Assembly (NCBI GenBank): GCA_046597065.1
Contig: JBKJLI010000003.1
Coordinates: 2,807 to 66,806 of the forward strand
Direction of reading: 5' to 3'
Length of the DNA stretch: 64,000 nucleotides
Source: Candidatus Saccharimonadia bacterium
Lineage (GTDB): Bacteria; Patescibacteriota; Saccharimonadia; UBA4664; SCTI01
The position numbers and the translations under genes are program-made. Of the stretch, positions 4,821 to 61,457 are shown in pieces (position 1 is the first letter of the stretch; each line of letters begins with the position of its first letter). A model generated the notes under the pieces. The model was not told the origin of the DNA, made no database searches, and saw only the letters and a program-made list of their open reading frames with translations.

Positions 4821-5427
4821 TTGTAATCTCTCGCTTTAACTCATCACGATGGCGCTCTAAGTTGGCCAGTAAGTAGCTGCGCTGCGCACCTAAATCGGCA
4901 TCTATACCCAAACTCTCTACAATATAGGCGGCCACGGCGGCACCCAACTTTTTATCAAGCTGGTCCATTAAATACTGCCGACGCTTAACCATTTCGGCGT
5001 CCATATCGCCCTCTAGCTCGGTCTGCTTTTGCTCGACGGTGGATTCCATTTTGCGCAACGCCGCTATGGCCTGTTCGCGAGCATTAGCTAAACTAACCCG
5101 GTAATCTTCAAGCTCACGCTCTACCACATCGGTGGTTAAGTTAACTATCAGTTTGTTTAATTGAGTCGAAGTTGTCGCCAAATCTTGGTGAAAACCTTTG
5201 GCGGCTGCAGCAACGGCTTGGCGGTAGGCCTCTTGAGTGCTAGTTTGCAGGCGCGCCAGTTCGGCTTCGGTAATATGAGGTATTTCTGGCAGCGGCGCCT
5301 GCTGCTGAACAGCCTCGGCCTTATCTTGTTCAACAACTTCAGTTGGCCGCCGGCTAAGCATCAGTGCCAGTAGGATTGCTCCAACGAGCACCCCTCCGAC
5401 TACCAAAATAATTTGAATGGTTGTCAT
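4801..5427 (-). CDS. atpF: F1Fo ATP synthase b subunit
   Basis: N-terminal single TM helix (IQIILVVGGVLVGAILLALML) followed by a long charged coiled coil. Operon position. Confidence 0.65.
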   Translation of the reverse strand: MTTIQIILVVGGVLVGAILLALMLSRRPTEVVEQDKAEAVQQQAPLPEIPHITEAELARLQTSTQEAYRQAVAAAAKGFHQDLATTSTQLNKLIVNLTTDVVERELEDYRVSLANAREQAIAALRKMESTVEQKQTELEGDMDAEMVKRRQYLMDQLDKKLGAAVAAYIVESLGIDADLGAQRSYLLANLERHRDELKREITSGTASK

Positions 5428-21683: not shown

Positions 21684-21715
21684 GCTCCAGCTAAAATTGA
21701 AACGCAAGCTGGAGC
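21684..21715 (-). terminator. Perfect 9-bp-stem hairpin (GCTCCAGCT / 14-nt loop / AGCTGGAGC) abutting the stop codon of the YdeI-like gene
   Basis: Arms are exact reverse complements. No downstream U-tract, so it may be a stabiliser or attenuator rather than a classical intrinsic terminator. Confidence 0.3.
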
Positions 21716-21963
21716 TATTGGCGATGCATGCAGCCAGCCCAGCAGCAAGGGCGACGCTTTCCCTCAATTAATTCCATGCGCGTTCGCTCAATATGATTTG
21801 CCCGCGTTTCCGGCCTTTTAACCGATATAGCCCAACAGATCCACTCATTTCGTGCCAGCGGCGTAAGATCTACCCAAGCCGTCCAAACGTCAGGGTCTGA
21901 CTTCAGGGCAACCCGTAAGTCTGTAGGAAGTTCGTGAACTGGCCCTGATTTAACTTTATTCAT
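21715..21963 (-). CDS. YdeI/OmpD-associated family protein (PF13376-like)
   Basis: C-terminal signature WVDLTPLARNEWICWAISVKRPETRANHIERT...GKRRPCCWAGCMHR matches the family pattern (PLAR.EWI.W...ETR..RI......GKRRPCCW.GC.HR). Confidence 0.55.
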   Translation of the reverse strand: MNKVKSGPVHELPTDLRVALKSDPDVWTAWVDLTPLARNEWICWAISVKRPETRANHIERTRMELIEGKRRPCCWAGCMHRQ

Positions 21964-22659: not shown

Positions 22660-22750
22660 TGTTGATATATTAACAAAATTTTCTTAATAATTATTTAATC
22701 TTAGCTCGATGCTCCCAAGCCGTTATTGAAGCTAAAACTGCAATCGCTAA

Positions 22751-23233: not shown

Positions 23234-23479
23234 CTACTTATGGCTTTGTGAATGTTTTTGTTTTGCTAAGGCCAGCCAGCCCAGTGCATTGATTGTAATT
23301 GTTACGGCAGAAAACCACAGCGACAGACTTACGTAAGTGATCGCAAAAGTTATTAAGACGCCGGCTGTGATTAAGCTGGTACTAAATGCTGGTTTGTTTT
23401 CACTGCGTAACGATGGAACCAGTGCCAGCGAAAAAATTAACGAGCCGGCTGCCAAAACAAAATCTTGCCATTTATACAT
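23234..23479 (-). CDS. Small membrane protein (hypothetical, 3 TM)
   Basis: 81 aa hydrophobic ORF lying immediately upstream of, and opposite in orientation to, the ABC-F gene (23545..25200). Confidence 0.3.
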   Translation of the reverse strand: MYKWQDFVLAAGSLIFSLALVPSLRSENKPAFSTSLITAGVLITFAITYVSLSLWFSAVTITINALGWLALAKQKHSQSHK

Positions 23480-23544
23480 GCCCTAATCATATCAAAAGCG
23501 ACTGGCGGGGTTCCTGCCATATAACCTGTGATAAGATTACGGCT

Positions 23545-25200
23545 ATGATTCTGGGTGTCGACATCGCGGAAAAAACGATTGGCGCCAAGGAACTTTTCCG
23601 AGGGCTAGAGTTTAGGTTGGAATTAGGCGAAAAGGTCGCTATCATCGGCCGCAATGGCGTTGGCAAAACAACATTGTTTAACATGCTTGCTGGCAACGAT
23701 AAAATTTTTATCGGCGAGGTCAAGGGTAGGCGCGGGCTTCGAATCGCCGCCACCAAACAAGAATTTCACGGCACTGGCGAGGTGACCTGCTACGACTATA
23801 TCTTGGACAATATTCCGGAATTCAGGGTACTACAAAAGATAATCGATGCATATCCTGAAAGCAAAGATCATAGCCAAAAAAATATCGCTGCTTATACCGA
23901 CGCCTTAGAGCGATTTTCGCAGCTCGATTACTTTTCTATTAAAGACAGAGTTTTTAATGCATTAGCGGTATACCAAATTGGACCCGAAGCGGCATTACAG
24001 CGGTTTAAAAACCTTTCTGGCGGACAAAAGCGGTTCGCCGATTTAGTGCGAGTAGAGCTATCTTACTCCGATCTGGCACTTGTAGATGAACCTACCAACC
24101 ACATGGACTATGTGGGCAAAGCAGCCTTTATTAACTGGCTCAATGATTCCTCACACGCTGTAGCGGTTATCACCCATGATCGCGACGTGCTTGCCAATGT
24201 CGACCGCATAATCGAGATTAAAGACAAGAAAGCCTACAGCTTTAATGGCAACTATCATGAGTATTTACGGCTTAATAACAGTTCAACGGTCGATAAAATT
24301 ACCGACTACGAAACCGGCCAGCGAACCCTAGATAATCTTTATAAGCAGTTAATAGCCGCTAAAACTAAAAAGTTAAACGCCAGCTCTGACTCGGCCAAAA
24401 AGTTTCGGATTATGGAGGATCGACTGCAACGGCAGTATGATGATTTGAAAGCTCAAGTCTCTAGGCCCGATTTCTGGATCGACCAAGAAAATGTCGCCAT
24501 GATGCCTGGCAAGGTTTCCGAAAAATATCATAAATATAAATCCAAAAATATCCGCATACTTGGTCATCAGGGCATCGATTCAATTCACGAATTACTCCGA
24601 ATTAATGGCCTTTCCCTTGGTTACGATCACCCACTCTTTGATTACGTTAGTTGTAATGTTTCCTCTGGAAGCCAAATTCAAATAAAAGGCCGCAATGGCG
24701 CTGGCAAAACAACCTTGGTCCGAGCCATTATTGCTGCATCCACTAGCGAAACTCCCCCATCTACTACCTTTGCGGGAGAGATCTTGCCTCATAAAAAAAT
24801 CAAAGTGGGTTTTTACGAACAGGAAATCAGCGAGCATTACTTACGCCTAACGCTTGCCGACGCAATTAAACAGACCTACCACGATAAGGACGTGCCAATC
24901 AATGACCAAAAGGTTAAGCAGATAATGGCCGACTACTTATTCGATCCTCAAATCGATGGCAGGCTTAGGGTAGAGCAGCTTTCGGGTGGGCAAAAAGCCC
25001 GTTTGCAAATAATTAAGATGCTTTGCAATAAACCGAATCTACTCATTCTGGACGAACCTACTAATCACCTAGACCTGCCTTCGGTAGAAGAGCTAGAAAA
25101 CGCCCTCACCAAGTATGATGGAGCAATAATCTTTGTGTCACACGACACCTTTTTTGCCAAAAACTTTGACGCCGAAGTCATTCAAATTGGGGAACAGTAA
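23545..25200 (+). CDS. ABC-F family ATPase (tandem ABC domains, no TMD). Likely ribosome-associated translation factor or ARE-type protein.
   Basis: Two NBDs (GRNGVGKTT...LSGGQKR...LVDEPTNHMD and GRNGAGKTT...LSGGQKARL...ILDEPTNHLD) with an inter-domain linker. The real start is probably ATG ~23545 (MILGVDIAEK...), not the track start at 23386. Confidence 0.85.
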   Translation: MILGVDIAEKTIGAKELFRGLEFRLELGEKVAIIGRNGVGKTTLFNMLAGNDKIFIGEVKGRRGLRIAATKQEFHGTGEVTCYDYILDNIPEFRVLQKIIDAYPESKDHSQKNIAAYTDALERFSQLDYFSIKDRVFNALAVYQIGPEAALQRFKNLSGGQKRFADLVRVELSYSDLALVDEPTNHMDYVGKAAFINWLNDSSHAVAVITHDRDVLANVDRIIEIKDKKAYSFNGNYHEYLRLNNSSTVDKITDYETGQRTLDNLYKQLIAAKTKKLNASSDSAKKFRIMEDRLQRQYDDLKAQVSRPDFWIDQENVAMMPGKVSEKYHKYKSKNIRILGHQGIDSIHELLRINGLSLGYDHPLFDYVSCNVSSGSQIQIKGRNGAGKTTLVRAIIAASTSETPPSTTFAGEILPHKKIKVGFYEQEISEHYLRLTLADAIKQTYHDKDVPINDQKVKQIMADYLFDPQIDGRLRVEQLSGGQKARLQIIKMLCNKPNLLILDEPTNHLDLPSVEELENALTKYDGAIIFVSHDTFFAKNFDAEVIQIGEQ

Positions 25201-25238
25201 TTAACTTTTTATGTTTATGATAGCTAGAACTGCCATAT

Positions 25239-25627
25239 TTATTTCAGCTTGAAGTCGAAAACCAAAAATGGATCGTCATCCTCGATCTTACGTCCAATAT
25301 AATCATAGTATCCCGATAGAACTTCACGCTGATGCTCTTTATCCTTATATGATTCATGTGTGCCTGTTTTGATGGGTATATTTTTAAAAATGGTCGTGGA
25401 TTTATCTTCAATCTTGGCCTTACCGACAATCTCCTTTGTGTCAGAGTTTTGAATGCTTACATTGTCTCCTACCTCGAGGTAGTCATATTTATTGCCGAAT
25501 CTGTACGTGGTTAGCTTCTTTTGCTCAAGGATAAATCGCACCAGCTCCGGCGCAAATGGAATTACATAAGCATCTGGACTGTACTCAGTAGGATTTATGG
25601 ATGTAGTATCCGGTACTCGGTAATTCA
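25239..25627 (-). CDS. ASCH (PUA-like) domain protein
   Basis: APELVRFILEQKKLTTYRF fits the ASCH signature (..I..G.KT.E.R). The start is probably the internal ATG ~25627 (MNYRVP...), because the conserved leader module occupies 25628-25686. Confidence 0.5.
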
Positions 25628-25686
25628 TGACCCCATGATAACAAAAACGACCTTTCGGTCGTTTAAGCATAAGTGCAATGGCTCAC
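25628..25686 (-). repeat. Leader module copy R5 (GAGCCATTGCACTTATGCTT-AAACGACC-GAAA-GGTCGTTT-TTGTTATCATGGGG)
   Basis: Shares the tRNA-Asn 3' flank sequence and the hairpin with R1-R3. Sequence is written on the minus strand. Confidence 0.7.
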
Positions 25687-25706
25687 CCTAAGGGACGATT
25701 TTCAAA

Positions 25707-26111
25707 CTATAATGACGGTCCAAGCCAATTACTGGGGATAGCATACTTCTCAACTGTACCAGCTGGAACATCACCGTTACCTTCAAAAATAATTGTCCAA
25801 GCGCCGTTCTGTTTTGATAAATAAATGTGACCGCCGCCGCCCTCTCCATTGGTCACTACATGCGCCAAGCTTGACTCCTTGTTCTCAATCTTGCAGTTAG
25901 TATTGCCCGTGCACTTTGCTGCTTTAAGAATTTGGTCGTCTTCACTTAAATTATTCTTAGTTTCGACTGCTTTAACTACAGTTTTTGTTGAATCATTGGC
26001 GACCTGACGTGCGGTATAAACGTATACTCCTCCGCCAACTAGCAAACTAGCTAGGAGGACAAATAATACTACTTCTAATCCGGAGAATCCTTTTTGATTG
26101 AGTTTTTTCAT
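25707..26111 (-). CDS. Type IV prepilin-like N-terminal domain protein (small pseudopilin/pilin)
   Basis: N-terminus MKKLNQKGFSGLEVVLFVLLASLLVGGG carries the class III signal G|FxxxE with Glu at +5, followed by a hydrophobic helix. Confidence 0.5.
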   Translation of the reverse strand: MKKLNQKGFSGLEVVLFVLLASLLVGGGVYVYTARQVANDSTKTVVKAVETKNNLSEDDQILKAAKCTGNTNCKIENKESSLAHVVTNGEGGGGHIYLSKQNGAWTIIFEGNGDVPAGTVEKYAIPSNWLGPSL

Positions 26112-26191
26112 GAGTGCTCGCCTGTTTTGAACTAAGAGTAGCTAAAAATAAGCATAAGTGCAATGGCTCCGAGTGGTAATGGAAGTTAGAA
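26112..26191 (-). repeat. Leader module copy R4 (GGAGCCATTGCACTTATGCTTA..., hairpin replaced by unrelated sequence)
   Basis: Conserved GTTAGAACT boundary motif at the upstream stop and CGGAGCCATTGCACTTATGCTT core. The hairpin portion is absent. Confidence 0.6.
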
Positions 26192-27010
26192 CTAGTATCC
26201 AGGGTGATCAGGAAACAACGGGTCAACGAGGCGAGCGGCCGTTAAAAGCTCTTTATCGCTAAACTTTTTCCGAATTACTTTTTCCCAACCCTCACCACTA
26301 TTACTCGGGTCGGCTGGACTAACCGATCTTTTCCAATCTAAATGCTCGGATAGCTTGTTATCTTCTGGGTTACGACGGGTGTAGTGCAGGACTTGGCAAT
26401 TAAAGATTTTTACTCCCGGCTCCTTTGATTTATCCATTTCTACCCACTGCTCAATTGTCATACGCTCAAGAATAAAGCGAAACGCAGACATAACCTCACC
26501 ATGGCACACAATTATCACTCGCTTGTCTGAGCATTCACGGTGAAGTGTATTGAGGATTGGGCGCAGGCGATTGGTAAGTTGGGCGATTGACTCACCGTTG
26601 GGAGGAATCCAATAAAATGGGTCTGTGTCCCTCTGTTTTAACGACTCTTCAGACAAATGCAGGCGCTCTTCCGGCGGCTTACTGTCAAAATCACCCCATT
26701 CTCTTTCTCTCAATAGTGGCTCAACAAACCAGTTTGGACCATCAATTTCAAGCAATCCCGCCGTCTCCACAGCTCGGGTGTAGGTTGAAACGTATCGGCG
26801 GTCGAAGAAGCCAAGTTCATTATCTTTAAGCCACCCGCCGGCTTTTTTTGCCTGTGTCCTTCCTTTAACTGTAAGTCGGTGCTGCGAGCCGTGACGACTT
26901 CGGAATGCCTTTGTATATAAACTGCTATCACCCTTCTTGGCAAAATGGGATGCCAGGTTTTGTTCAGATTGGCCGTGGCGAACAAGAATTAAGTCAATTG
27001 GCATTGCCAT
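26192..27010 (-). CDS. Histidine phosphatase superfamily (branch 1, phosphoglycerate-mutase-like) protein
   Basis: LILVRHGQSEQN (RHG catalytic motif) and a later IIVCHGEVM (catalytic His). Confidence 0.7.
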   Translation of the reverse strand: MAMPIDLILVRHGQSEQNLASHFAKKGDSSLYTKAFRSRHGSQHRLTVKGRTQAKKAGGWLKDNELGFFDRRYVSTYTRAVETAGLLEIDGPNWFVEPLLREREWGDFDSKPPEERLHLSEESLKQRDTDPFYWIPPNGESIAQLTNRLRPILNTLHRECSDKRVIIVCHGEVMSAFRFILERMTIEQWVEMDKSKEPGVKIFNCQVLHYTRRNPEDNKLSEHLDWKRSVSPADPSNSGEGWEKVIRKKFSDKELLTAARLVDPLFPDHPGY

Positions 27011-27104
27011 GTTTAATACTCCCTACTCCCATCATAACAAAAACGACACTTTCAAGTCGTTTAAGTATAAGTGCAATGGCTCCGGTTCCTACAGGATGTT
27101 AGAA
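27011..27104 (-). repeat. Leader module copy R3 (AGTTCTAAC...CCGGAGCCATTGCACTTATACTT-AAACGACTT-GAAA-GTGTCGTTT-TTGTTATGATGGGAGTAGGGAG...)
   Basis: Near-identical to the tRNA-proximal copy R1. Includes a GGGAG RBS 10 nt before the ATG. Confidence 0.75.
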
Positions 27105-27641
27105 CTATTCACTCAGGTGTTTGAGCAAAAATACCGCCGAGTTACCGTACCCGTATTGATAATCGTTAATCCTACCTGCGTTCTGGTACCCGTTCTTTGC
27201 ATAAAAATGGATAACCTTTTCATCGTCTTCATTAGTATAAACAAACATCTTGGTAGCGCTTCGCCCACGAGCTATCTGTTCAGTTGCTTCCAGTAAAAGA
27301 CTCCCAGCTCCCTGGCCGGCAAATTCTGGTTCAATGGCCATTATTACGATTACCCACTTCTCCTCGCCCTCTAAACCATTTATGGGGCTTTCTTGCTGGG
27401 TGTAAACAAAGCCAATAGTTCTGCCATTATTCAAGATGACTACGCATGCTCCACGGTTTGCGCGGATTTGCGCTGCCATTTCGTCAAAAGAGAACCATTC
27501 CGAAATGTTTGCGTCTGACGTTTTCCCGAAGGCACGCTCTGCTATGCTACGAAGTTCTGACATTTGATTATCCGACTTGAGAAGTTCTGTGTGCATACAT
27601 AAATGATACCAAAAAACGACCCTCTTGAGTCGTTTAAGCAT
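27105..27641 (-). CDS. GNAT-family N-acetyltransferase
   Basis: The acetyl-CoA binding region (EPEFAGQGAGSLLLEATEQIAR) is diagnostic of GNAT and occurs with other conserved blocks. The biological start is probably the internal ATG ~27563 (MSELRSIAER...), since the first 26 codons of the track ORF translate the leader-module hairpin. Confidence 0.65.
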   Translation of the reverse strand: MLKRLKRVVFWYHLCMHTELLKSDNQMSELRSIAERAFGKTSDANISEWFSFDEMAAQIRANRGACVVILNNGRTIGFVYTQQESPINGLEGEEKWVIVIMAIEPEFAGQGAGSLLLEATEQIARGRSATKMFVYTNEDDEKVIHFYAKNGYQNAGRINDYQYGYGNSAVFLLKHLSE

Positions 27642-27671
27642 AAGTGTAATGGTTCCTGGTGGTGATGGAAG
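27564..27671 (-). repeat. Leader module copy R2 (AGTTCTAACTTCCATCACCACCAGGAACCATTACACTTATGCTT-AAACGACTC-AAGA-GGGTCGTTT-TTTGG...)
   Basis: Same module with 2-3 substitutions in the tRNA-derived core (GGAACCATTACAC) and loop AAGA. Confidence 0.7.
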
Positions 27672-28328
27672 TTAGAACTTTAGCAGCTGTCTAACTTTCG
27701 GCATGACTTTACTGTATATAAATTCATGGCCATCATCATTTGGGTGGACGCCATCAATTAATAACGCCTCTTCGCCCTTTGCTTTAAACTCATCGTAAAT
27801 TCTGATGCAGGGAATATGATTTTCTCTACATACCGCATGGAGTATTATATTAAATTTCGTTATGCGATCATTATCATAACATTTACCCGTAGAGGAGCTC
27901 TCAAGCGGAGTAGTTTTCCCCTCGTCCACCGGAGGAATCTCGATAAAAAAGATGTTTCTATCACTATATTCTTTAGCCCTAGCCACCAATTTATTGAGCG
28001 AATTTCGATACTCTTCTTCGCTGGTCTCATACTCAATTTTACTTAGGTGTTGCTTCCGATGAAGGGAATCGTTTGTCCCCGTTGCGAATATAAATGCATA
28101 CTCTTCTCCATCCCATAGCCTAGCCTTGGTTTCGTTATCAAATCTTTCTAGAATAAGCTCGGCTGTATTCCCGTCAACACCAAGACTAAACACCTTGTTA
28201 TAGTCTTTTATACCGTTGTCGACTTCGTAGGCTTGGACTGCAGCCTTTACCCTATCGGCCCAACCACCCTTACTATCCCAAAGGCCCTGAGTAATACTGT
28301 CACCGTAAATAAATATGATCATACCCAC
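27672..28328 (-). CDS. SGNH/GDSL-family hydrolase (lipase/esterase/acyl-esterase-like)
   Basis: IFIYGDSITQG (GDS block I), a Gly-containing block, and a C-terminal DGVHPNDDGHEF (DxxH catalytic pair). The track start is GTG (28328). ATG at ~28322 (MIIFIYGDS...) is equally plausible. Confidence 0.7.
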   Translation of the reverse strand: MGMIIFIYGDSITQGLWDSKGGWADRVKAAVQAYEVDNGIKDYNKVFSLGVDGNTAELILERFDNETKARLWDGEEYAFIFATGTNDSLHRKQHLSKIEYETSEEEYRNSLNKLVARAKEYSDRNIFFIEIPPVDEGKTTPLESSSTGKCYDNDRITKFNIILHAVCRENHIPCIRIYDEFKAKGEEALLIDGVHPNDDGHEFIYSKVMPKVRQLLKF

Positions 28329-28374
28329 ATCATAACAAAAACGACCCTTTCGAGTCGTTTAAGTATAAGTGCAA
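28323..28374 (-). repeat. Leader module copy R1, the native tRNA-Asn 3' flank (TTGCACTTATACTT-AAACGACTC-GAAA-GGGTCGTTT-TTGTTATGATGTGGGT)
   Basis: Directly contiguous with the tRNA 3' end (...CCCCGGAGCCA). Hairpin is a 9-bp stem with GAAA (GNRA) loop followed by UUUUUGUU. Confidence 0.75.
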
Positions 28375-28449
28375 TGGCTCCGGGGGCCGGACTCGAACCG
28401 GCAACCTACTGATTAACAGTCAGTTGCTCTACCATTGAGCTACCCCGGA
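28375..28449 (-). tRNA. tRNA-Asn (anticodon GTT), CCA-encoded
   Basis: Minus-strand sequence TCCGGGG-TA-GCTC-AATGGTA-GAGC-A-ACTGA-CTGTTAA-TCAGT-AGGTT-GCCGG-TTCGAGT-CCGGC-CCCCGGA-G-CCA. It has a 7-bp acceptor, D stem GCTC/GAGC, anticodon loop CU-GUU-AA, T loop TTCGAGT and 75 nt. Confidence 0.9.
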
Positions 28450-28451
28450 AT

Positions 28452-28520
28452 AGTACCTAAGTACTCCGAAAGTATACTTCTCGAGACTCAACCTGGTCAA
28501 ATCTCAATCATAGGGGTATG
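28452..28520 (-). promoter_or_regulatory. Putative tRNA-Asn promoter (-35 TTGACC, 18-nt spacer, -10 TATACT) with an AGTAC-N4-GTACT inverted repeat between the -10 and the tRNA 5' end
   Basis: Minus-strand sequence is TTGACCAGGTTGAGTCTCGAGAAGTATACTTTCGGAGTACTTAGGTACTATT followed by the tRNA. The same 80-nt gap must also hold the plus-strand cfa promoter. Confidence 0.35.
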
Positions 28521-33344: not shown

Positions 33345-33385
33345 TGGCTTGCTTATGGTGTGATCATAACATAGAAGCATAAGTG
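33345..33385 (-). repeat. Degenerate, hairpin-less copy of the cassette leader module (CACTTATGCTTCTA-TGTTATGATCAC)
   Basis: Forward strand tgatcataaca-tagaagcataagtg is co-linear with the R1-R5 forward sequence atcataacaaaaacgac[hairpin]gtttaagcataagtgcaatgg. A separate 7-bp-stem hairpin (CCCCGAG..CTTGGGG, 33391..33410) lies just upstream. Confidence 0.4.
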
Positions 33386-33538
33386 AAACTCCCCGAGCTG
33401 ACGCTTGGGGCAGCGCGTGGGAATGAGTGCAGCCCTTGCCACCCAACAGCTGTGCATATGCCATTTTGACTGAAAAATATTTCAATATGCTCGACCAAGA
33501 ACTACAGACTACCGAGAATTGCTCCGCATAGAGCTTGG

Positions 33539-57391: not shown

Positions 57392-57626
57392 ACTCGAGAC
57401 ATCATAGCGGTTTTGAGCCTACAGGTCAATCCGTTGTAGGAGGTTAAAAGCGAACACTAAATTTGTTTTTCCCCGAAATTAGCCGATTTATCCCCCTTTT
57501 TACATCTGTTGCTGTATACCCTGTGGACAGAATGTATTAAAATTTCATGGTTGTGAGTTAGCCGCAATTACGGTTATGATTGAGCTATCAAACGACACTA
57601 AATTGCGTTTAAAACGGTGGAGGTTT
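57392..57626. promoter_or_regulatory. oriC part A (rpmH-dnaA intergenic): dnaA promoter region with DnaA-box-like motifs TTTTCCCCG, TTATCCCCC and TGTGGACAG
   Basis: The motifs match the TTATCCACA consensus at 7 of 9 positions. The region is AT-rich. Confidence 0.4.
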
Positions 57627-58991
57627 ATGAGTTCACAAAAGCTGTGGCAGGCTGTTCTCGGCGAGCTAGAAGTTAGCTTTACCCGGGCTCAGTTTGAAAC
57701 TTGGTTCAAGGGCACCTCGGTGATTGCCAGCGAGGACGGCTACATTGTTGTGGGCGTTCCAAACATTTTCACTAAAGAGTGGCTCGAAAAAAAGTACTGC
57801 CAGCAGATTAGTGATAGCCTAAGCCGCATTGCCCCCGACATCGAGGGCATAAAGTACACCGTTACAACGGTGGGCGGCAAGGTTAGTGGCGCTCGTGATC
57901 AAATTATTGCCCCCATCGAAGCTCCGGTAACGGTTGTGGCCGCTACTCCAACTCCCACCCAGGGTGCCAATAAAAAACTCAATCACCGCTACACTCTAGA
58001 TGGTTTTGTGGTTGGTTCTAGTAATGATTTGGCCTTTGCGGCAAGTCAGGCCGTGGTGGCTGCGCCTGGTGCCAAGTACAACCCGCTATTTATTTACGGT
58101 GGCGTTGGGCTTGGCAAAACCCACTTAATTCAAGCCATTGGAAACGAAATCAACCGTAATGATCCCTCCAAAAAAGTCCTGTATGTCACCAGCGAACAGT
58201 TCACTAATGAGTTCTTAAACAGTATTTCCGGCAAAAGCACCAAAAAATTCACCGAAAAGTACCGCAGCCTAGACGTTTTAATCGTCGACGACATTCAGTT
58301 TTTGGGCAACAAAGAACGGACCCAAGAAGAGTTCTTTCACACCTTTAACACCCTGTATGAGGCTAATAAACAGGTTATTCTTTCGAGCGATAAACCACCA
58401 CGCGACATCCCCCACCTAGAAGACCGTCTGCGCTCTCGCTTTGGCTGGGGCATGGTGGCCGACATTCAAAAACCAGACTTTGAAACCCGCGCCGCCATTA
58501 TTCAGCGCAAGGCTGCTAGTCGTGGAATAAATCTAGAACTGCCGGTTATCGAACACATCGCTCGTCATCACCAGCACAATATCCGCGACCTCGAAGGCAC
58601 CTTAACCAACATTCTGGCTCAGTGTGAGCTAAAAGACCGCGAACCTTCACTCGAGTTTGTAAACTCTATTTTAGGTGCCGCAGCACCGGCCACTAAGCGC
58701 CGCTTGGCCACCCCTAAAATGATCATCGAAAAGACGGCCGGATTCTTTGATATTAGTCCGTCTGACATTACCGGCCAGTGTCGCGATAAAGATATTGTAG
58801 TACCACGCCAAATCGCCATGTATATCATGCGCCAAGAGTTGGGTTTGAGCTTTCCAAAGATTGCCCAAAACGTTGGCGGTCGCGACCACACAACGGCCAT
58901 GCATTCGGTATCAAAGATAGAGAAGTTATTAGAGGTTAATGAGGAGCTTCGCTCCGAGGTGAGTCAGGTTCGGGAACGCGTCACCCTGTGA
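57576..58991 (+). CDS. dnaA: Chromosomal replication initiator DnaA
   Basis: Domain III Walker A GGVGLGKTHL, sensor motifs, and domain IV DnaA-box binding helix (VVPRQIAMYIMRQELGLSFPKIAQNVGGRDHTTAMHS). The probable biological start is the internal ATG at ~57627 (MSSQKLWQAVLGELE...) behind a GGAGG RBS, not the track start at 57576. Confidence 0.95.
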   Translation: MIELSNDTKLRLKRWRFMSSQKLWQAVLGELEVSFTRAQFETWFKGTSVIASEDGYIVVGVPNIFTKEWLEKKYCQQISDSLSRIAPDIEGIKYTVTTVGGKVSGARDQIIAPIEAPVTVVAATPTPTQGANKKLNHRYTLDGFVVGSSNDLAFAASQAVVAAPGAKYNPLFIYGGVGLGKTHLIQAIGNEINRNDPSKKVLYVTSEQFTNEFLNSISGKSTKKFTEKYRSLDVLIVDDIQFLGNKERTQEEFFHTFNTLYEANKQVILSSDKPPRDIPHLEDRLRSRFGWGMVADIQKPDFETRAAIIQRKAASRGINLELPVIEHIARHHQHNIRDLEGTLTNILAQCELKDREPSLEFVNSILGAAAPATKRRLATPKMIIEKTAGFFDISPSDITGQCRDKDIVVPRQIAMYIMRQELGLSFPKIAQNVGGRDHTTAMHSVSKIEKLLEVNEELRSEVSQVRERVTL

Positions 58992-59276
58992 TCAAAGTGA
59001 CAAAAAGCTGGGGGAAAACTGAGGGTATCTTGTGGGCAAGGTCCCTCTTTTTGTTGGGCCGGTTAGCATCCTGGGGAAAAACCATAACAACTTTACCCAG
59101 TTTGGCCCCAACTCGTCCCCTAAACCGTAAGCAGTTTTCCCATTGGCTGGGGACGCAAAAAGGTTTAACTCAAGCTAAAAACCAGGGCTTTCCCCACTAT
59201 CCCCACCCCCTACTACTACCCCAACTTATTTTAAAAATTACTAAAGTATAATATTAGTCACGAAAGGTGTGGATTA
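58992..59276. promoter_or_regulatory. oriC part B (dnaA-dnaN intergenic): cluster of TT(T/A)TCCCC(A/C)-type boxes, a TGTGGATTA box abutting dnaN, and an AT-rich DUE candidate (TTATTTTAAAAATTACTAAAGTATAATATTAGTC, ~59222..59256)
   Basis: TGGGGGAAAA (59011) and TGGGGAAAAA (59074) are the reverse complement of TTTTCCCCA. TTTCCCCAC and TATCCCCAC lie at ~59187..59210. TGTGGATTA at ~59265 matches the reverse complement of TTATCCACA at 8 of 9 positions. The 87-aa ORF 58988..59251 is regarded as non-coding. Confidence 0.5.
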
Positions 59277-60383
59277 ATGAAACTCAGCGTCACCCAAGAA
59301 AATCTGAATAAGGCTCTAGCTTCAGTGGGGCGAGTTGTTAGTAACCGCGCCAGTCTGCCGGTATTAAGTAATGTCTTATTAAGTGCCGATTCTAGCCAAC
59401 TTAGAATTGCCGCAACCAATTTAGAGATTGGAATAAACTACTGGATTGGCGGCAAGGTCGAAGAAAAGGGCGCCTTAACTGTACCGGCAAGGTTGTTGGG
59501 CGAGTTCGTGGGTAATCTTCCAGCCGGTAATTTAGAGCTCAGCGCCGAGGATTCCAACTTAAGTGTTAAAGCCAAACACCACAATTCGCACATTAACGGC
59601 ATATCGGCCGAGGACTTCCCTTTAATTCCAGAGGTTAAGGGTGAGCCGGTTTTAACCCTAGAGTGTCAGCCGTTTAAAGAGGCTATTGCCGAAGTGGTTC
59701 TGGCGGCTGCGCTAGATGAAAGCCGACCGGTTTTGGCTGGAGTTTTAATGCGGATTGAAGATGGAGAGTTAATCATGGCCGCCACCGACAGCTTTCGCCT
59801 GGCCGAACGTCGCATAAAGCTGCCTAAGGGTCATAAAGGTGAGTTAGACGTAATTGTTCCGGCTCGTACCATGCAAGTGCTGGTGCGGATTCTGGGTGAC
59901 AGTGAGGGCGAGGCCAGTATGCACGTAGCCGACAGCCAGGTGTTATTTAGACTCGAAAATGTTGAGTTGGTTTCGCGCACCATCGATGGCACCTACCCCA
60001 ACTACCCCCAAATAATCCCAGCTACCGAGGAAACCAACGCCACCGTTAATGTGGCTGAATTAACTCGCATCACTAAGATGGCTAATCTGTTTGCCCGCGA
60101 AAATGGCGGCGGCGTTAAGGTTGAGGTTCAAGCCGAAGGCGAGATTAGGATTATGGCGGCGGCCAGTCAAGTTGGCGAAAACACCTCTAGCGCCGACTGC
60201 GAGGTGGCTGGTGATGACGCCGAAATTTCGATTAATGCTCGCTTTTTAACCGACGCCTTAGGGGTTATAAAAACCGAAAAGGTCAGCTTTAGCACCAGCG
60301 GCAAGCTTAACCCCTGCGTGCTGCGGCCGGTTGGCAACAACACCCACGACTATCTTCACATTATTATGCCGCTGCGCTCTTAG
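59277..60383 (+). CDS. dnaN: DNA polymerase III beta subunit (sliding clamp)
   Basis: 368 aa, three-domain clamp. N-terminal MKLSVTQENLNKAL... Position after dnaA. Confidence 0.9.
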   Translation: MKLSVTQENLNKALASVGRVVSNRASLPVLSNVLLSADSSQLRIAATNLEIGINYWIGGKVEEKGALTVPARLLGEFVGNLPAGNLELSAEDSNLSVKAKHHNSHINGISAEDFPLIPEVKGEPVLTLECQPFKEAIAEVVLAAALDESRPVLAGVLMRIEDGELIMAATDSFRLAERRIKLPKGHKGELDVIVPARTMQVLVRILGDSEGEASMHVADSQVLFRLENVELVSRTIDGTYPNYPQIIPATEETNATVNVAELTRITKMANLFARENGGGVKVEVQAEGEIRIMAAASQVGENTSSADCEVAGDDAEISINARFLTDALGVIKTEKVSFSTSGKLNPCVLRPVGNNTHDYLHIIMPLRS

Positions 60384-60410
60384 CGGCTGCCGTTTAAATA
60401 AGATCAGACC

Positions 60411-61457
60411 GTGATTAAACGGCTTTCATTAACCAACTTTCGCTCCTACGCCAACACCAGCTTTGATTTTGGCCCACTGGTTACGGTTGTTGTGGGTCCT
60501 AACGCTACTGGTAAGACCAACTTGCTAGAGGCTGTGTTTGTACTAGCAACCACCCGCAGCTTTAGAGCCAAAGATCCAGAGTTAATTAACCATCAAGCCG
60601 ACTTTTACCGGATTGTGGCCGCCACCCCAAATGGTGAAATTGCCTTAGGCTATCAAAACAGCGATACCACTACCAAAAAGGCCCAGCACGACGGCGCCAA
60701 CCAAACCCTTATGCAGCATTTAGGCCACCTGCGTACCGTGCTGTTTGAGCCCAACGACTTACAGTTAATTTCTGGTGCGCCAGATCGCCGCCGCCGCTAC
60801 CTGGATTTTATCCTCACCCAAACCCAACCCAACTACTTAAAAACCCTGCATCAGTACCGAAGGGTGTTGCAACAACGCAACCGTCTGCTTTCCGACTGGC
60901 ATGGCAATGATGGCGAGCTGTTTGCCTGGAACCTTAAACTGACCGAACTGGCTACCGACATCGACACCGCACGCCGCACGCTCGTAGAGCATCTAAACCA
61001 GCGCATACCCACACTGTATGCAGAAATTGCCGGTAAGCCAGCCCAACTCGAACTAATCTACCTGGGCAGCGCCGATGCGATTAACTACTCCGATACCTTT
61101 TTGGCTCGGCTTGAATCCAACCTGTCGCGCGACATTGGTGCCGGCTTTACCACCATTGGCCCCCACCGCGACGATCTAGAGATCCGCTTTAAACAGGCCA
61201 GTACCACAGCCGTGGCCAGCCGCGGCGAAATGCGCACGGTAGTGCTGGCGCTAAAGTTTGCCGAGCTGGAATACATTCACAAACACTCTGGCATCTCCCC
61301 CATTCTTTTACTCGACGATGTTTTTAGTGAGCTCGACGGACGCCGCCGCGAGTACTTAATTAACCGGCTAGATAGCCACCAAGCTATAATTACCACAACC
61401 GACGCCGATACCAGCAAGCGCTTAGACGGAGCCACCGTAATCGAGACTAAACTATGA
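60411..61457 (+). CDS. recF: DNA replication and repair protein RecF
   Basis: N-terminus MIKRLSLTNFRSYANTSFDFGPLVTVVVGPNATGKTNLLEA (Walker A). SMC-like signature and Walker B (LLLDDVFSELD). Confidence 0.9.
   Translation: MIKRLSLTNFRSYANTSFDFGPLVTVVVGPNATGKTNLLEAVFVLATTRSFRAKDPELINHQADFYRIVAATPNGEIALGYQNSDTTTKKAQHDGANQTLMQHLGHLRTVLFEPNDLQLISGAPDRRRRYLDFILTQTQPNYLKTLHQYRRVLQQRNRLLSDWHGNDGELFAWNLKLTELATDIDTARRTLVEHLNQRIPTLYAEIAGKPAQLELIYLGSADAINYSDTFLARLESNLSRDIGAGFTTIGPHRDDLEIRFKQASTTAVASRGEMRTVVLALKFAELEYIHKHSGISPILLLDDVFSELDGRRREYLINRLDSHQAIITTTDADTSKRLDGATVIETKL

Follow-up and report, generated by a model that had tools for sequence, protein, structure and literature searches.

A tRNA-Asn-anchored array of integrase-less, mostly single-gene cassettes in Saccharimonadales

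How do five unrelated genes come to stand in a row behind a tRNA gene, each introduced by a copy of the same short module? The question is raised by a 64,000-nucleotide (64 kb) stretch of contig JBKJLI010000003.1 from a Candidatus Saccharimonadia bacterium, referred to here as the window, whose coordinates are used throughout. A tRNA-Asn(GTT) gene with an encoded CCA lies at 28375-28449 on the minus strand (ARAGORN; Rfam RF00005, 76.7 bits) and is the sole tRNA placed in the window. Five unrelated small genes follow its 3' end, all on the tRNA strand; an earlier reading of the sequence alone (the original prediction) had described them so, and ARAGORN, Rfam and Pfam bear the description out. 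The array has a G+C content of 43%, versus 47% for the window. It can be classed only as an integrase-less, att-bounded cassette array, failing the defining tests of both integrons and tycheposons (see below). The explanation that we favor, and consider probable, is that integrase-less cassettes lying in tandem are swapped by site-specific recombination at the tRNA 3' end, through a recombinase encoded elsewhere.

The junctions between these genes share a common anatomy. Read on the array strand, a right end (RE) is followed by a left end (LE), a hairpin, an extended -10 promoter element, six nucleotides (nt) and an ATG. The RE consists of AGTTCTAAC, about 16 nt and GAGCCA; the LE, TTGCACTTATRCTT, is the tRNA trailer. 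A 20-nt core, GAGCCATTGCACTTATRCTT, occurs five times in 64 kb, always within the array and on the minus strand, where shuffled sequences would be expected to give none. Four copies are exact and that of R2 has two mismatches (the module copies at junctions 1 to 5 are called R1 to R5). Over 62 nt, junctions 1 and 3 share 93.5% identity. The span from GTTC to CCA of the RE measures 29 nt in each of the four window junctions; with all copies included, the range is 27-31 nt. Direct repeats of the tRNA end are present at every window junction, ranging from GAGCCA to CCGGAGCCA; the RE thus repeats the last 6-9 nt of the tRNA, CCA included, and up to about 10 nt in relatives. The original prediction had put this identity at 8-9 nt, which holds for R3 (9 nt) and R4 (8 nt); in R5 it spans 6 nt and in R2 it is imperfect. 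Its claim that one motif marks the distal boundary of every cassette is likewise correct in part: AGTTCTAAC is exact at three boundaries (R2-R4), R5 has AGTTTGAAA, and the tail beyond the last cassette, where the motif had also been reported, carries the variant AGTTCTAGC without GAGCCA. This degenerate RE is the end of the recognizable array. The stop codon of the cassette 1 gene (TAA) falls within the AGTTCTAAC box, and the start of the cassette 2 gene is fixed by TGGTATCAT, six nt and ATG. A further module copy, claimed near 33.35 kb (33360-33400, minus strand), turned out to have only CACTTATGCTT and the TGTTATGAT promoter box in common with the module; CCA, RE and hairpin are all lacking, and an ordinary promoter is the best reading. 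Two features considered by eye led to no claim: an AAGTT-CT-AACTT palindrome in the RE, of which only GTT/AAC is consistently palindromic, and a LexA box.

Is the module a repeat scattered over the genome? When 185,579 species were scanned, each represented by a single genome, the core turned up in just three Saccharimonadales-type assemblies, besides a handful of matches at the chance rate; a metagenome collection added a few more. Saccharimonadales contigs held one or two module copies in the species and metagenome scans, never hundreds, and a dispersed repeat of the REP/BIME/MITE type was rejected on this count. The original prediction had itself named a generic genome-wide repeat as one of two findings that would count against it; all five copies in the window (5/5) lie in the array. 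A profile was then built from 16 REs of other lineages only, the LE being left out. At E<0.01 on the 64 kb window it matches only the three canonical REs, those of junction 2 (E-value 1.1e-3), junction 3 (8.8e-4) and junction 4 (1.5e-5). In 567 kb from 57 sources, all 26 matches within loci that contain a tRNA-Asn lie on the tRNA strand, 0.2-3.6 kb downstream. Across lineages the RE family box reads GTTCTAAC, about 16 nt often with CACCAC, and (G)GAGCCA, in total about 30 nt. The type-2 RE of junction 5 (GTTTGAAAATCGTC...GAGCCA) is also found in L003, L061 and L069 (related loci are designated by L numbers). The LE in most relatives' loci is GGAATTAT, not TTGCAC, and RE and LE types assort independently, REs of the GTTCTAAC and GTTTGAAAA types each occurring with TTGCAC and with GGAATTAT LEs. 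The junction family is tied to tRNA-Asn in many lineages.

Related loci were retrieved via pilin-like homologues and via LexA. The LexA gene lies one to nine genes upstream of tRNA-Asn in every retrieved locus that has both, and the genes 3' of tRNA-Asn are almost entirely different among about 10 Saccharimonadales lineages. L059 (LexA 89% identical) and L069 (LexA 92%) keep the LexA-CMAS-tRNA-Asn synteny of the window. L059 carries two pilin-like genes and a glyoxalase-like gene, L069 two SET-domain genes, pilin-like genes and others; the SGNH, GNAT and histidine phosphatase genes of the window are in neither. Of the five window genes, only the pilin-like one has close homologues elsewhere (83-53% identity). 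The histidine phosphatase has one 27%-identical relative, and no homologues of the SGNH, GNAT and ASCH-like genes were found among the retrieved loci. A set of syntenic core genes, the other reading that the original prediction had set against its own, is not what the relatives show, since they carry other genes at the site.

Close strains differ by whole cassettes. The pilin protein of L061 is 100% identical to that of L062/L063. In L061 the tRNA runs directly into AGTAATTATCAGATAGG..., and in L062/L063 the same sequence follows an insert of at least 4.7 kb ending in TTTGGTTCTTAGCACGTATGCTAGGGGGAGCCA; L061 and L062 share 19/60 identities upstream of the CCA and 60/60 downstream. The five contigs of the P0134 group have identical LexA. 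L074/L076 have three genes in two cassettes by the tRNA, L075 a single 70-aa cassette and L073 a third set; L074 and L075 are identical at 60/60 positions right after the CCA of different REs. The tRNAs of L073, L074 and L075 are identical, with divergence setting in 8-9 nt past the CCA, and the same is seen among L092, L093 and L094. L002 and L017 share a kinase cassette that has retained its own RE, with different LEs and genes behind it. None of these breakpoints lies outside GGAGCCA and the adjoining 8 or so nt of the LE, and all precede the hairpin and the GTTATGAT box. This gives an exchange zone of about 15 nt, to which the tRNA (or RE) contributes its last seven nt and the LE roughly its first eight. 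The serial site-specific insertion at a tRNA 3' end that the original prediction had proposed is supported by these strain differences and the position of their breakpoints. At the distal end, REs have degenerated both in the window (25203-25231) and in L074/L075 (AGAGCTA, GGAACTAT).

Given the same flanks (LexA, CMAS, tRNA-Asn) with different genes in relatives, and strains that differ by whole cassettes, there is next to nothing to recommend a non-mobile accessory cluster with copies of one terminator-promoter unit between its genes. A terminator combined with a promoter type common in this genome does make up the 3' half of the module, as such a cluster would have it; the RE half would be left without a regulatory explanation, although it is conserved across lineages with differing promoters.

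The insert of L062 (1-4816) and L063 (1-6300) packs its genes tightly into at least 4.7-6.3 kb, of which L063 shows about 6.3 kb, and is closed by a canonical 29-nt RE. Its tRNA-proximal end is off the contig, and a protein search with the Eco57I-like gene of L063 brought up no longer contig. Besides four small genes, the insert comprises a PD-(D/E)XK gene and a restriction-modification gene of the Eco57I type (type IIG). Defense cargo of several genes is thus also accepted at this site. Non-coding mini-inserts of about 95 and 163 nt are present in L078 (11958-12075) and L086 (18606-18769), flanked by 18- and 19-nt direct repeats, respectively, of the tRNA-Asn 3' end. This is the textbook footprint of integration, and the mini-inserts resemble remains of classical integrase events in these more distant lineages.

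The breakpoints also bear on an alternative in which natural transformation and homologous recombination, with RE and LE (about 30-60 nt) as short homology arms, do all the work and no dedicated recombinase is needed. The conserved stretch is 30-60 nt long, but the breakpoints keep to a core of 15-16 nt; each RE variant goes with the gene upstream of it and each LE variant with the gene downstream, and tracts of 7-16 nt are too short for RecA-dependent exchange. The presence of the same RE on every cassette and the 18-19-nt repeats of the mini-inserts would also go unexplained. Nevertheless, no recombinase was found in any examined locus, the LE and hairpin are homogenized in the window genome as they would be under gene conversion, and Saccharibacteria are known to take up DNA and integrate it by homologous recombination (PMC10633639). 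Weighing both sides, we regard this alternative as unlikely.

What, then, is the role of the rest of the module? A hairpin formed by AAACGAC, a GNRA-type loop and GTCGTTTTT, followed by a T-run, is present in R1, R2, R3 and R5. The original prediction had placed it in every module; it is absent from R4. All four window hairpins match a terminator scan and are the best terminator-like sites of the region. In relatives the hairpins have other stems at the same position: in a loop-centered alignment made by hand, 92.9% of cells are paired, four of seven pairs are changed on both sides, and none of 500 shuffles is as good. An extended -10 (TGnTATSAT) stands six nt before the ATG, and such an element is predicted in four of the five cassettes at six to twenty nt. 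The combination of TGnTAnnAT, 5-7 nt (mostly six) and a start codon is found at no fewer than 12 genuine gene starts of the window, versus 0-4 in shuffles; examples are 7378(-), 10797(+), 13878(-), 21435(-), 22659(-), 23479(-), 23545(+), 38057(+) and 50201(+). This pattern suggests that leaderless mRNAs made from extended -10 promoters are common in this Saccharimonadales genome. Where the hairpin is absent, TTGCAC is the predicted -35 box: L003 has TTGCAC, 17 nt and TATAAT, R4 has TTGCAC, 17 nt and TACTCT, and the spacing is similar in L059 and L066. The 3' half of the module is accordingly predicted to be regulatory, a terminator plus a promoter. The original prediction had offered a shared promoter or leader as its alternative, which fits this half, with its terminator and its extended -10 and leaderless start, and leaves the RE half unexplained.

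The TTGCAC-type LE, with a 5' untranslated region (UTR) ending in GAGCACTCATG, accompanies pilin-like genes in L002, L008, L014, L059, L061 and L069. Because it travels with these genes, TTGCAC is probably the original tRNA-trailer/promoter of a pilin-like cassette. In L066 (1619-1760) this LE sits behind a tRNA-Gln(CTG), not tRNA-Asn, which is directly followed by TTGTACTTATGCTTA and a pilin-like homologue (59% identity).

The likeness of the RE to a tRNA end raises the possibility that the signal acts in RNA, a CCA-ending RE serving as a tRNA-like processing or "punctuation" mark by which a tRNA-led transcript is cut into mRNAs. The RE ends in the GAGCCA of the tRNA, starts with a T-loop-like GTTCNAA, and all copies are on the tRNA strand. 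However, no helix resembling an acceptor or T-arm is predicted, the Rfam tRNA model scores no RE even at E<=1, and the spacing is 29 rather than 24 nt; on the same grounds (29 nt versus 24 nt from G53 to CCA, and no predicted helix) the RE was rejected as a displaced tRNA 3' half or T-arm/acceptor mimic. Nor does Rfam assign the module to any known RNA family. In L074/L075 a 327-aa gene is reversed while the RE of its cassette is still in array orientation, and the RE is therefore a DNA boundary rather than an mRNA 3' signal. Predicted terminators and promoters part the cassettes, and their turnover from strain to strain would be left unexplained. An RNA-level role thus seems highly improbable.

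The array calls the integron to mind. In both, functionally unrelated and mostly single-gene cassettes line up in one orientation behind a fixed entry point, a conserved site (about 45 nt here) separates the genes, distal cassette ends decay, and content varies among close strains. The array is, however, anchored at a tRNA 3' end and not at an attI beside intI, and no intI lies beside it (37 window open reading frames (ORFs) scanned with Pfam, and the gene tables of related loci). The attC fold, an imperfect palindrome of 57-141 nt, was sought and rejected: on folding, four junctions and the tRNA junction yield nothing but the short terminator hairpin, without any pairing between RE and promoter, at z-scores from -1.6 to +0.7. 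Exchange occurs at GGAGCCA|LE, not at the G|TT of GTTRRRY; the original prediction was right that the attC core does not fit. Moreover, array cassettes are predicted to bring a terminator and a promoter, whereas integron cassettes are mostly promoterless and rely on Pc. These differences leave a degenerate integron, or integrase-less cluster of attC sites (CALIN), barely credible, even though its hallmarks of co-oriented, mostly single-gene cassettes with unrelated genes, mostly of accessory type, and a conserved intergenic site are all present: the palindrome is missing, breakpoints are at GAGCCA|LE, each cassette has its own predicted promoter, no intI was found and the anchor is a tRNA gene.

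Tycheposons, described in Prochlorococcus, are defined by their own integrase and hallmark replication genes (bioRxiv 10.1101/2020.12.28.424599). The array resembles them in its insertion at a tRNA 3' end, the tRNA-end repeats between successive elements, the probable outward displacement of older elements by newer ones, the scattered remnants and the streamlined host. It differs in that no array element examined has integrase or replication genes, in that its units are single genes of 0.25-1 kb instead of elements of several kb, and in that its repeat shares 6-10 nt with the tRNA and belongs to a dedicated RE (GTTCTAAC...CACCAC...), not to a partial tRNA. With tRNA islands in general it shares elements flanked by tRNA-end direct repeats (6-9 nt in the window, 18-19 nt in L078/L086). 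Islands of the P4 type sit at asn-tRNA genes in Enterobacteriaceae. The original prediction had held the arrangement to resemble neither a classical tRNA-borne island nor an integron, and the attC, intI and integrase-content tests uphold this.

Also comparable are the cis-mobilizable elements (CIMEs) related to ICESt1/ICESt3 of Streptococcus thermophilus, which lack an integrase, are flanked by att sites, accumulate in tandem at one site and use an integrase supplied in trans. Here too att-like RE|LE sites lie on both sides of each cassette, with no recombination gene inside. No helper element with a cognate integrase was seen in the window or in the locus flanks, however, and array cassettes are far smaller, more numerous and standardized (LE, terminator, promoter, gene, RE). 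The pdif (Xer) modules of Acinetobacter plasmids are also small units of one or two genes bounded by short conserved sites, on which a housekeeping recombinase encoded elsewhere acts. Inspection of aligned junctions reveals no 11-6-11 dif-like dyad (28-nt site) at RE|LE; furthermore, the array sites all repeat directly in a single orientation at a tRNA gene, and the array lies near dnaA (about 30 kb away) and not at the terminus. By this comparison the array behaves functionally like an integron, with its entry point, ordered unrelated single-gene cassettes and fast turnover, while mechanistically it looks closest to a tandem accretion of integrase-less elements at a tRNA att site, as paralleled by CIME-like elements and by the tycheposon tandems in which partial tRNAs separate the units.

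Insertion directly 3' of a fixed short sequence that also ends each element, always in one orientation, is reminiscent of HUH-type single-strand or rolling-circle transposition (passenger-less IS200/IS605 elements, IS91/ISCR), in which a transposase located elsewhere would direct insertion 3' of GAGCCA without duplicating the target. The asymmetric ends, with a hairpin 10-15 nt inside the left end in many cassettes, would also suit it. Yet the array has a hairpin at the left end only, where IS200/IS605 elements have one at both; the RE has no subterminal hairpin, and the LE hairpin with its T-run is terminator-like and missing from R4 and from many relatives' cassettes. No Y1/Y2 transposase was seen in the window and locus flanks, and insertion is confined to one locus per sampled genome, unlike that of insertion sequences. 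We consider this mechanism quite improbable.

Where might a recombinase come from? The original prediction had noted no integrase nearby. Pfam finds no recombinase domain in 37 window ORFs (the other 28 or so of about 65 were inspected by eye only), nor a recombinase gene among 10 array proteins of relatives, and the gene tables of related loci, L097 included, list no recombinase or PF00589 member within the visible flank of about 10 kb. Cassette genes encode hydrolases, acetyltransferases, phosphatases, kinases, methyltransferases, pilin-like proteins and restriction-modification enzymes; examined arrays contain no integrase. Searches for a mobile source gave no viral match to the core or to the RE|LE pattern; a looser RE pattern had 41 viral matches, all apparently due to chance and inside coding sequence. 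Junction 3 had no BLAST match among 50,697 phage and 72,556 plasmid records.

Several of these observations count against the site-specific recombination that we propose. The scanned window ORFs and the related loci (about 10 kb of flank) have no recombinase gene, and neither an excised circle nor an attP-bearing phage or plasmid was found in the phage, plasmid and viral collections. At 29 nt against the 24 nt of the tRNA, the RE cannot simply be a tRNA 3' end that has been displaced; no role is assigned to its conserved boxes, and inspection of the RE|LE core reveals no obvious dyad like those of usual tyrosine recombinase sites. The near-identity of LE and hairpin across unrelated window cassettes needs a shared pool or gene conversion. 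Several strain comparisons rest on short-read metagenome assemblies, in which misjoins are possible at repeats. Finally, Saccharibacteria are naturally competent, and homologous recombination could contribute (PMC10633639).

Site-specific recombination in trans can be pictured as follows. The tRNA-Asn 3' end would be an integration hotspot at which small mobile cassettes without integrase line up in tandem, each made of an LE, usually a GNRA terminator, an extended -10, one gene (occasionally several, in either orientation) and an RE. We infer a recombinase acting in trans, and a circular intermediate, by which the RE|LE of a cassette would recombine either with another junction or with the tRNA end; in integron terms, the tRNA end would correspond to attI and RE|LE to the cassette site. 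New cassettes would probably enter beside the tRNA and push older ones outward, whose ends decay. The LE would replace the tRNA trailer, restoring trailer and terminator for the tRNA, and would insulate each cassette, while the cassette's own extended -10 promoter would yield a leaderless mRNA, since the element stands only six nt before the ATG. As a tentative extension, possible though by no means the likelier case, Saccharimonadales and perhaps other candidate phyla radiation bacteria may have an integron-like gene-capture system of their own, with tRNA-Asn as the entry site, an RE|LE of about 45 nt, and an unlinked, possibly new recombinase that moves self-insulated cassettes between strains. 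No such locus was found described for Saccharibacteria or Patescibacteria in open-access full texts.

The genomes of candidate phyla radiation bacteria measure about 1 Mb and hold few recognized mobile elements, yet gene content varies between strains. The locus is a concrete unit of that variation: one address with standardized single-gene cassettes that differ even between strains with identical neighboring proteins. Were a trans-acting recombinase at work, the locus would represent a second solution to the integron problem, of independent sequence, with a tRNA end as docking site and with cassettes that supply their own terminator and promoter; a gene-capture system of their own would be a major route for the flow of accessory genes in these tiny genomes. 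In metagenomes, tRNA-Asn plus RE is a marker for the flexible gene pool of Saccharimonadales. The locus also offers a candidate safe insertion site and a portable expression-cassette design for transformable Saccharibacteria. It explains recurrent assembly breaks at tRNA-Asn as well. The L077 contig (5 samples) stops exactly at the tRNA-Asn CCA, position 4923; assemblies of the window's own sample break at R1 and R3, L067/L068 beginning inside R3; and L009 begins 178 nt before the CMAS gene. These breaks are consistent with population heterogeneity or repeat collapse at the locus.

Table 1. Coordinates of the tRNA-Asn anchor, junctions and cassette genes in the 64 kb window, in array order (aa, amino acids).
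Feature	Position	Strand	Basis or detail
Sigma-70-like tRNA-Asn promoter: TTGACC, 18 nt, TATACT	28471-28500	-	Consensus scan, 10/12 matches; consensus match only
tRNA-Asn 3' end GGAGCCA	part of 28375-28449	-	Array anchor, attB/attI-like
Junction 1 (left end of cassette 1)	28323-28374	-	
Junction 1 LE TTGCACTTATACTT	28361-28374	-	
Junction 1 hairpin and T-run	28337-28360	-	
Junction 1 extended -10 TGTTATGAT	28329-28337	-	Six nt, then ATG at 28322
Cassette 1 gene: SGNH/GDSL hydrolase, 216 aa	27672-28322	-	Pfam PF13472, E=4.9e-20
Junction 2	27597-27679	-	
Junction 2 RE AGTTCTAACTTCCATCACCACCAGGAACCA	27650-27679	-	
Junction 2 LE TTACACTTATGCTT	27636-27649	-	
Junction 2 hairpin	27611-27635	-	
Junction 2 extended -10 TGGTATCAT	27603-27611	-	
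Cassette 2 gene: GNAT acetyltransferase, 163 aa	27105-27596	-	Pfam PF00583, E=8.1e-15
Junction 3	27011-27106	-	
Junction 3 RE AGTTCTAACATCCTGTAGGAACCGGAGCCA	27077-27106	-	
Junction 3 LE	27063-27076	-	
Junction 3 hairpin	27039-27062	-	
Junction 3 extended -10	27031-27039	-	Then 20-nt leader with GGGAG Shine-Dalgarno-like box
Cassette 3 gene: histidine phosphatase (branch 1), 272 aa	26192-27010	-	Pfam PF00300, E=7.4e-30
Junction 4	26112-26193	-	Without hairpin; 5' UTR ending ...GAGCACTCATG
Junction 4 RE AGTTCTAACTTCCATTACCACTCGGAGCCA	26164-26193	-	
Junction 4 LE/promoter: TTGCAC, 17 nt, TACTCT	26135-26163	-	
Cassette 4 gene: type IV pilin-like protein, 134 aa	25707-26111	-	N-terminus KGFSGLEVV and hydrophobic helix, read from sequence
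Junction 5	25629-25708	-	
Junction 5 type-2 RE AGTTTGAAAATCGTCCCTTAGGGTGAGCCA	25679-25708	-	
Junction 5 LE	25665-25678	-	
Junction 5 hairpin	25643-25664	-	
Junction 5 extended -10 TGTTATCAT	25635-25643	-	
Cassette 5 gene: ASCH-like protein, 129 aa (weak assignment)	25239-25628	-	Pfam PF04266, E=0.013, 16.6 bits
Degenerate distal RE (AGTTCTAGC..., without GAGCCA)	25203-25231	-	Abuts 3' end of convergent ABC-F gene

Two of the cassette products listed in Table 1 call for comment. The pilin-like protein of cassette 4 has no Pfam match and was assigned from its N-terminus alone. The ASCH match of cassette 5 is below the Pfam cut-off, yet covers the full length of the profile; the sequence of this protein matches no solved structure. 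In the cassettes of three relatives, a gene for a 239-aa methyltransferase follows a conserved leader, about 200 nt long, in which several stem-loops could form (L073, 12892-13088; L074, 7566-7763; L075, 5262-5459); the leader matches no Rfam family at E<=1.

Elsewhere in the window, ORFs with dnaA-, dnaN- and recF-like N-termini, recognized by eye only, lie at 57576-61457 on the plus strand. With about 30 kb between them and the array, the hotspot is placed near the replication origin and not the terminus. The ABC-F ORF as listed (604 aa; 23386-25200, plus strand) begins too early: TGATAAGAT, seven nt and an ATG at 23545 give a protein of 551 aa, and the overlap with a divergent 81-aa gene disappears. 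Beyond this gene, between YGGT-like and DUF4386 genes, a weak RE-like stretch, AGTTTTAGCTTCAATAACGGCTTGGGAGCA, is found at 22690-22740 (minus strand). It was rejected as a further RE remnant, not being significant with the RE profile, and may be a very old junction or a chance match. A small gene with an OmdA domain (PF13376) lies at 21714-21962 on the minus strand. Such a gene recurs at or near the distal part of the array in many lineages, among them those of L059, L061, L069, L078, L093 and L094.

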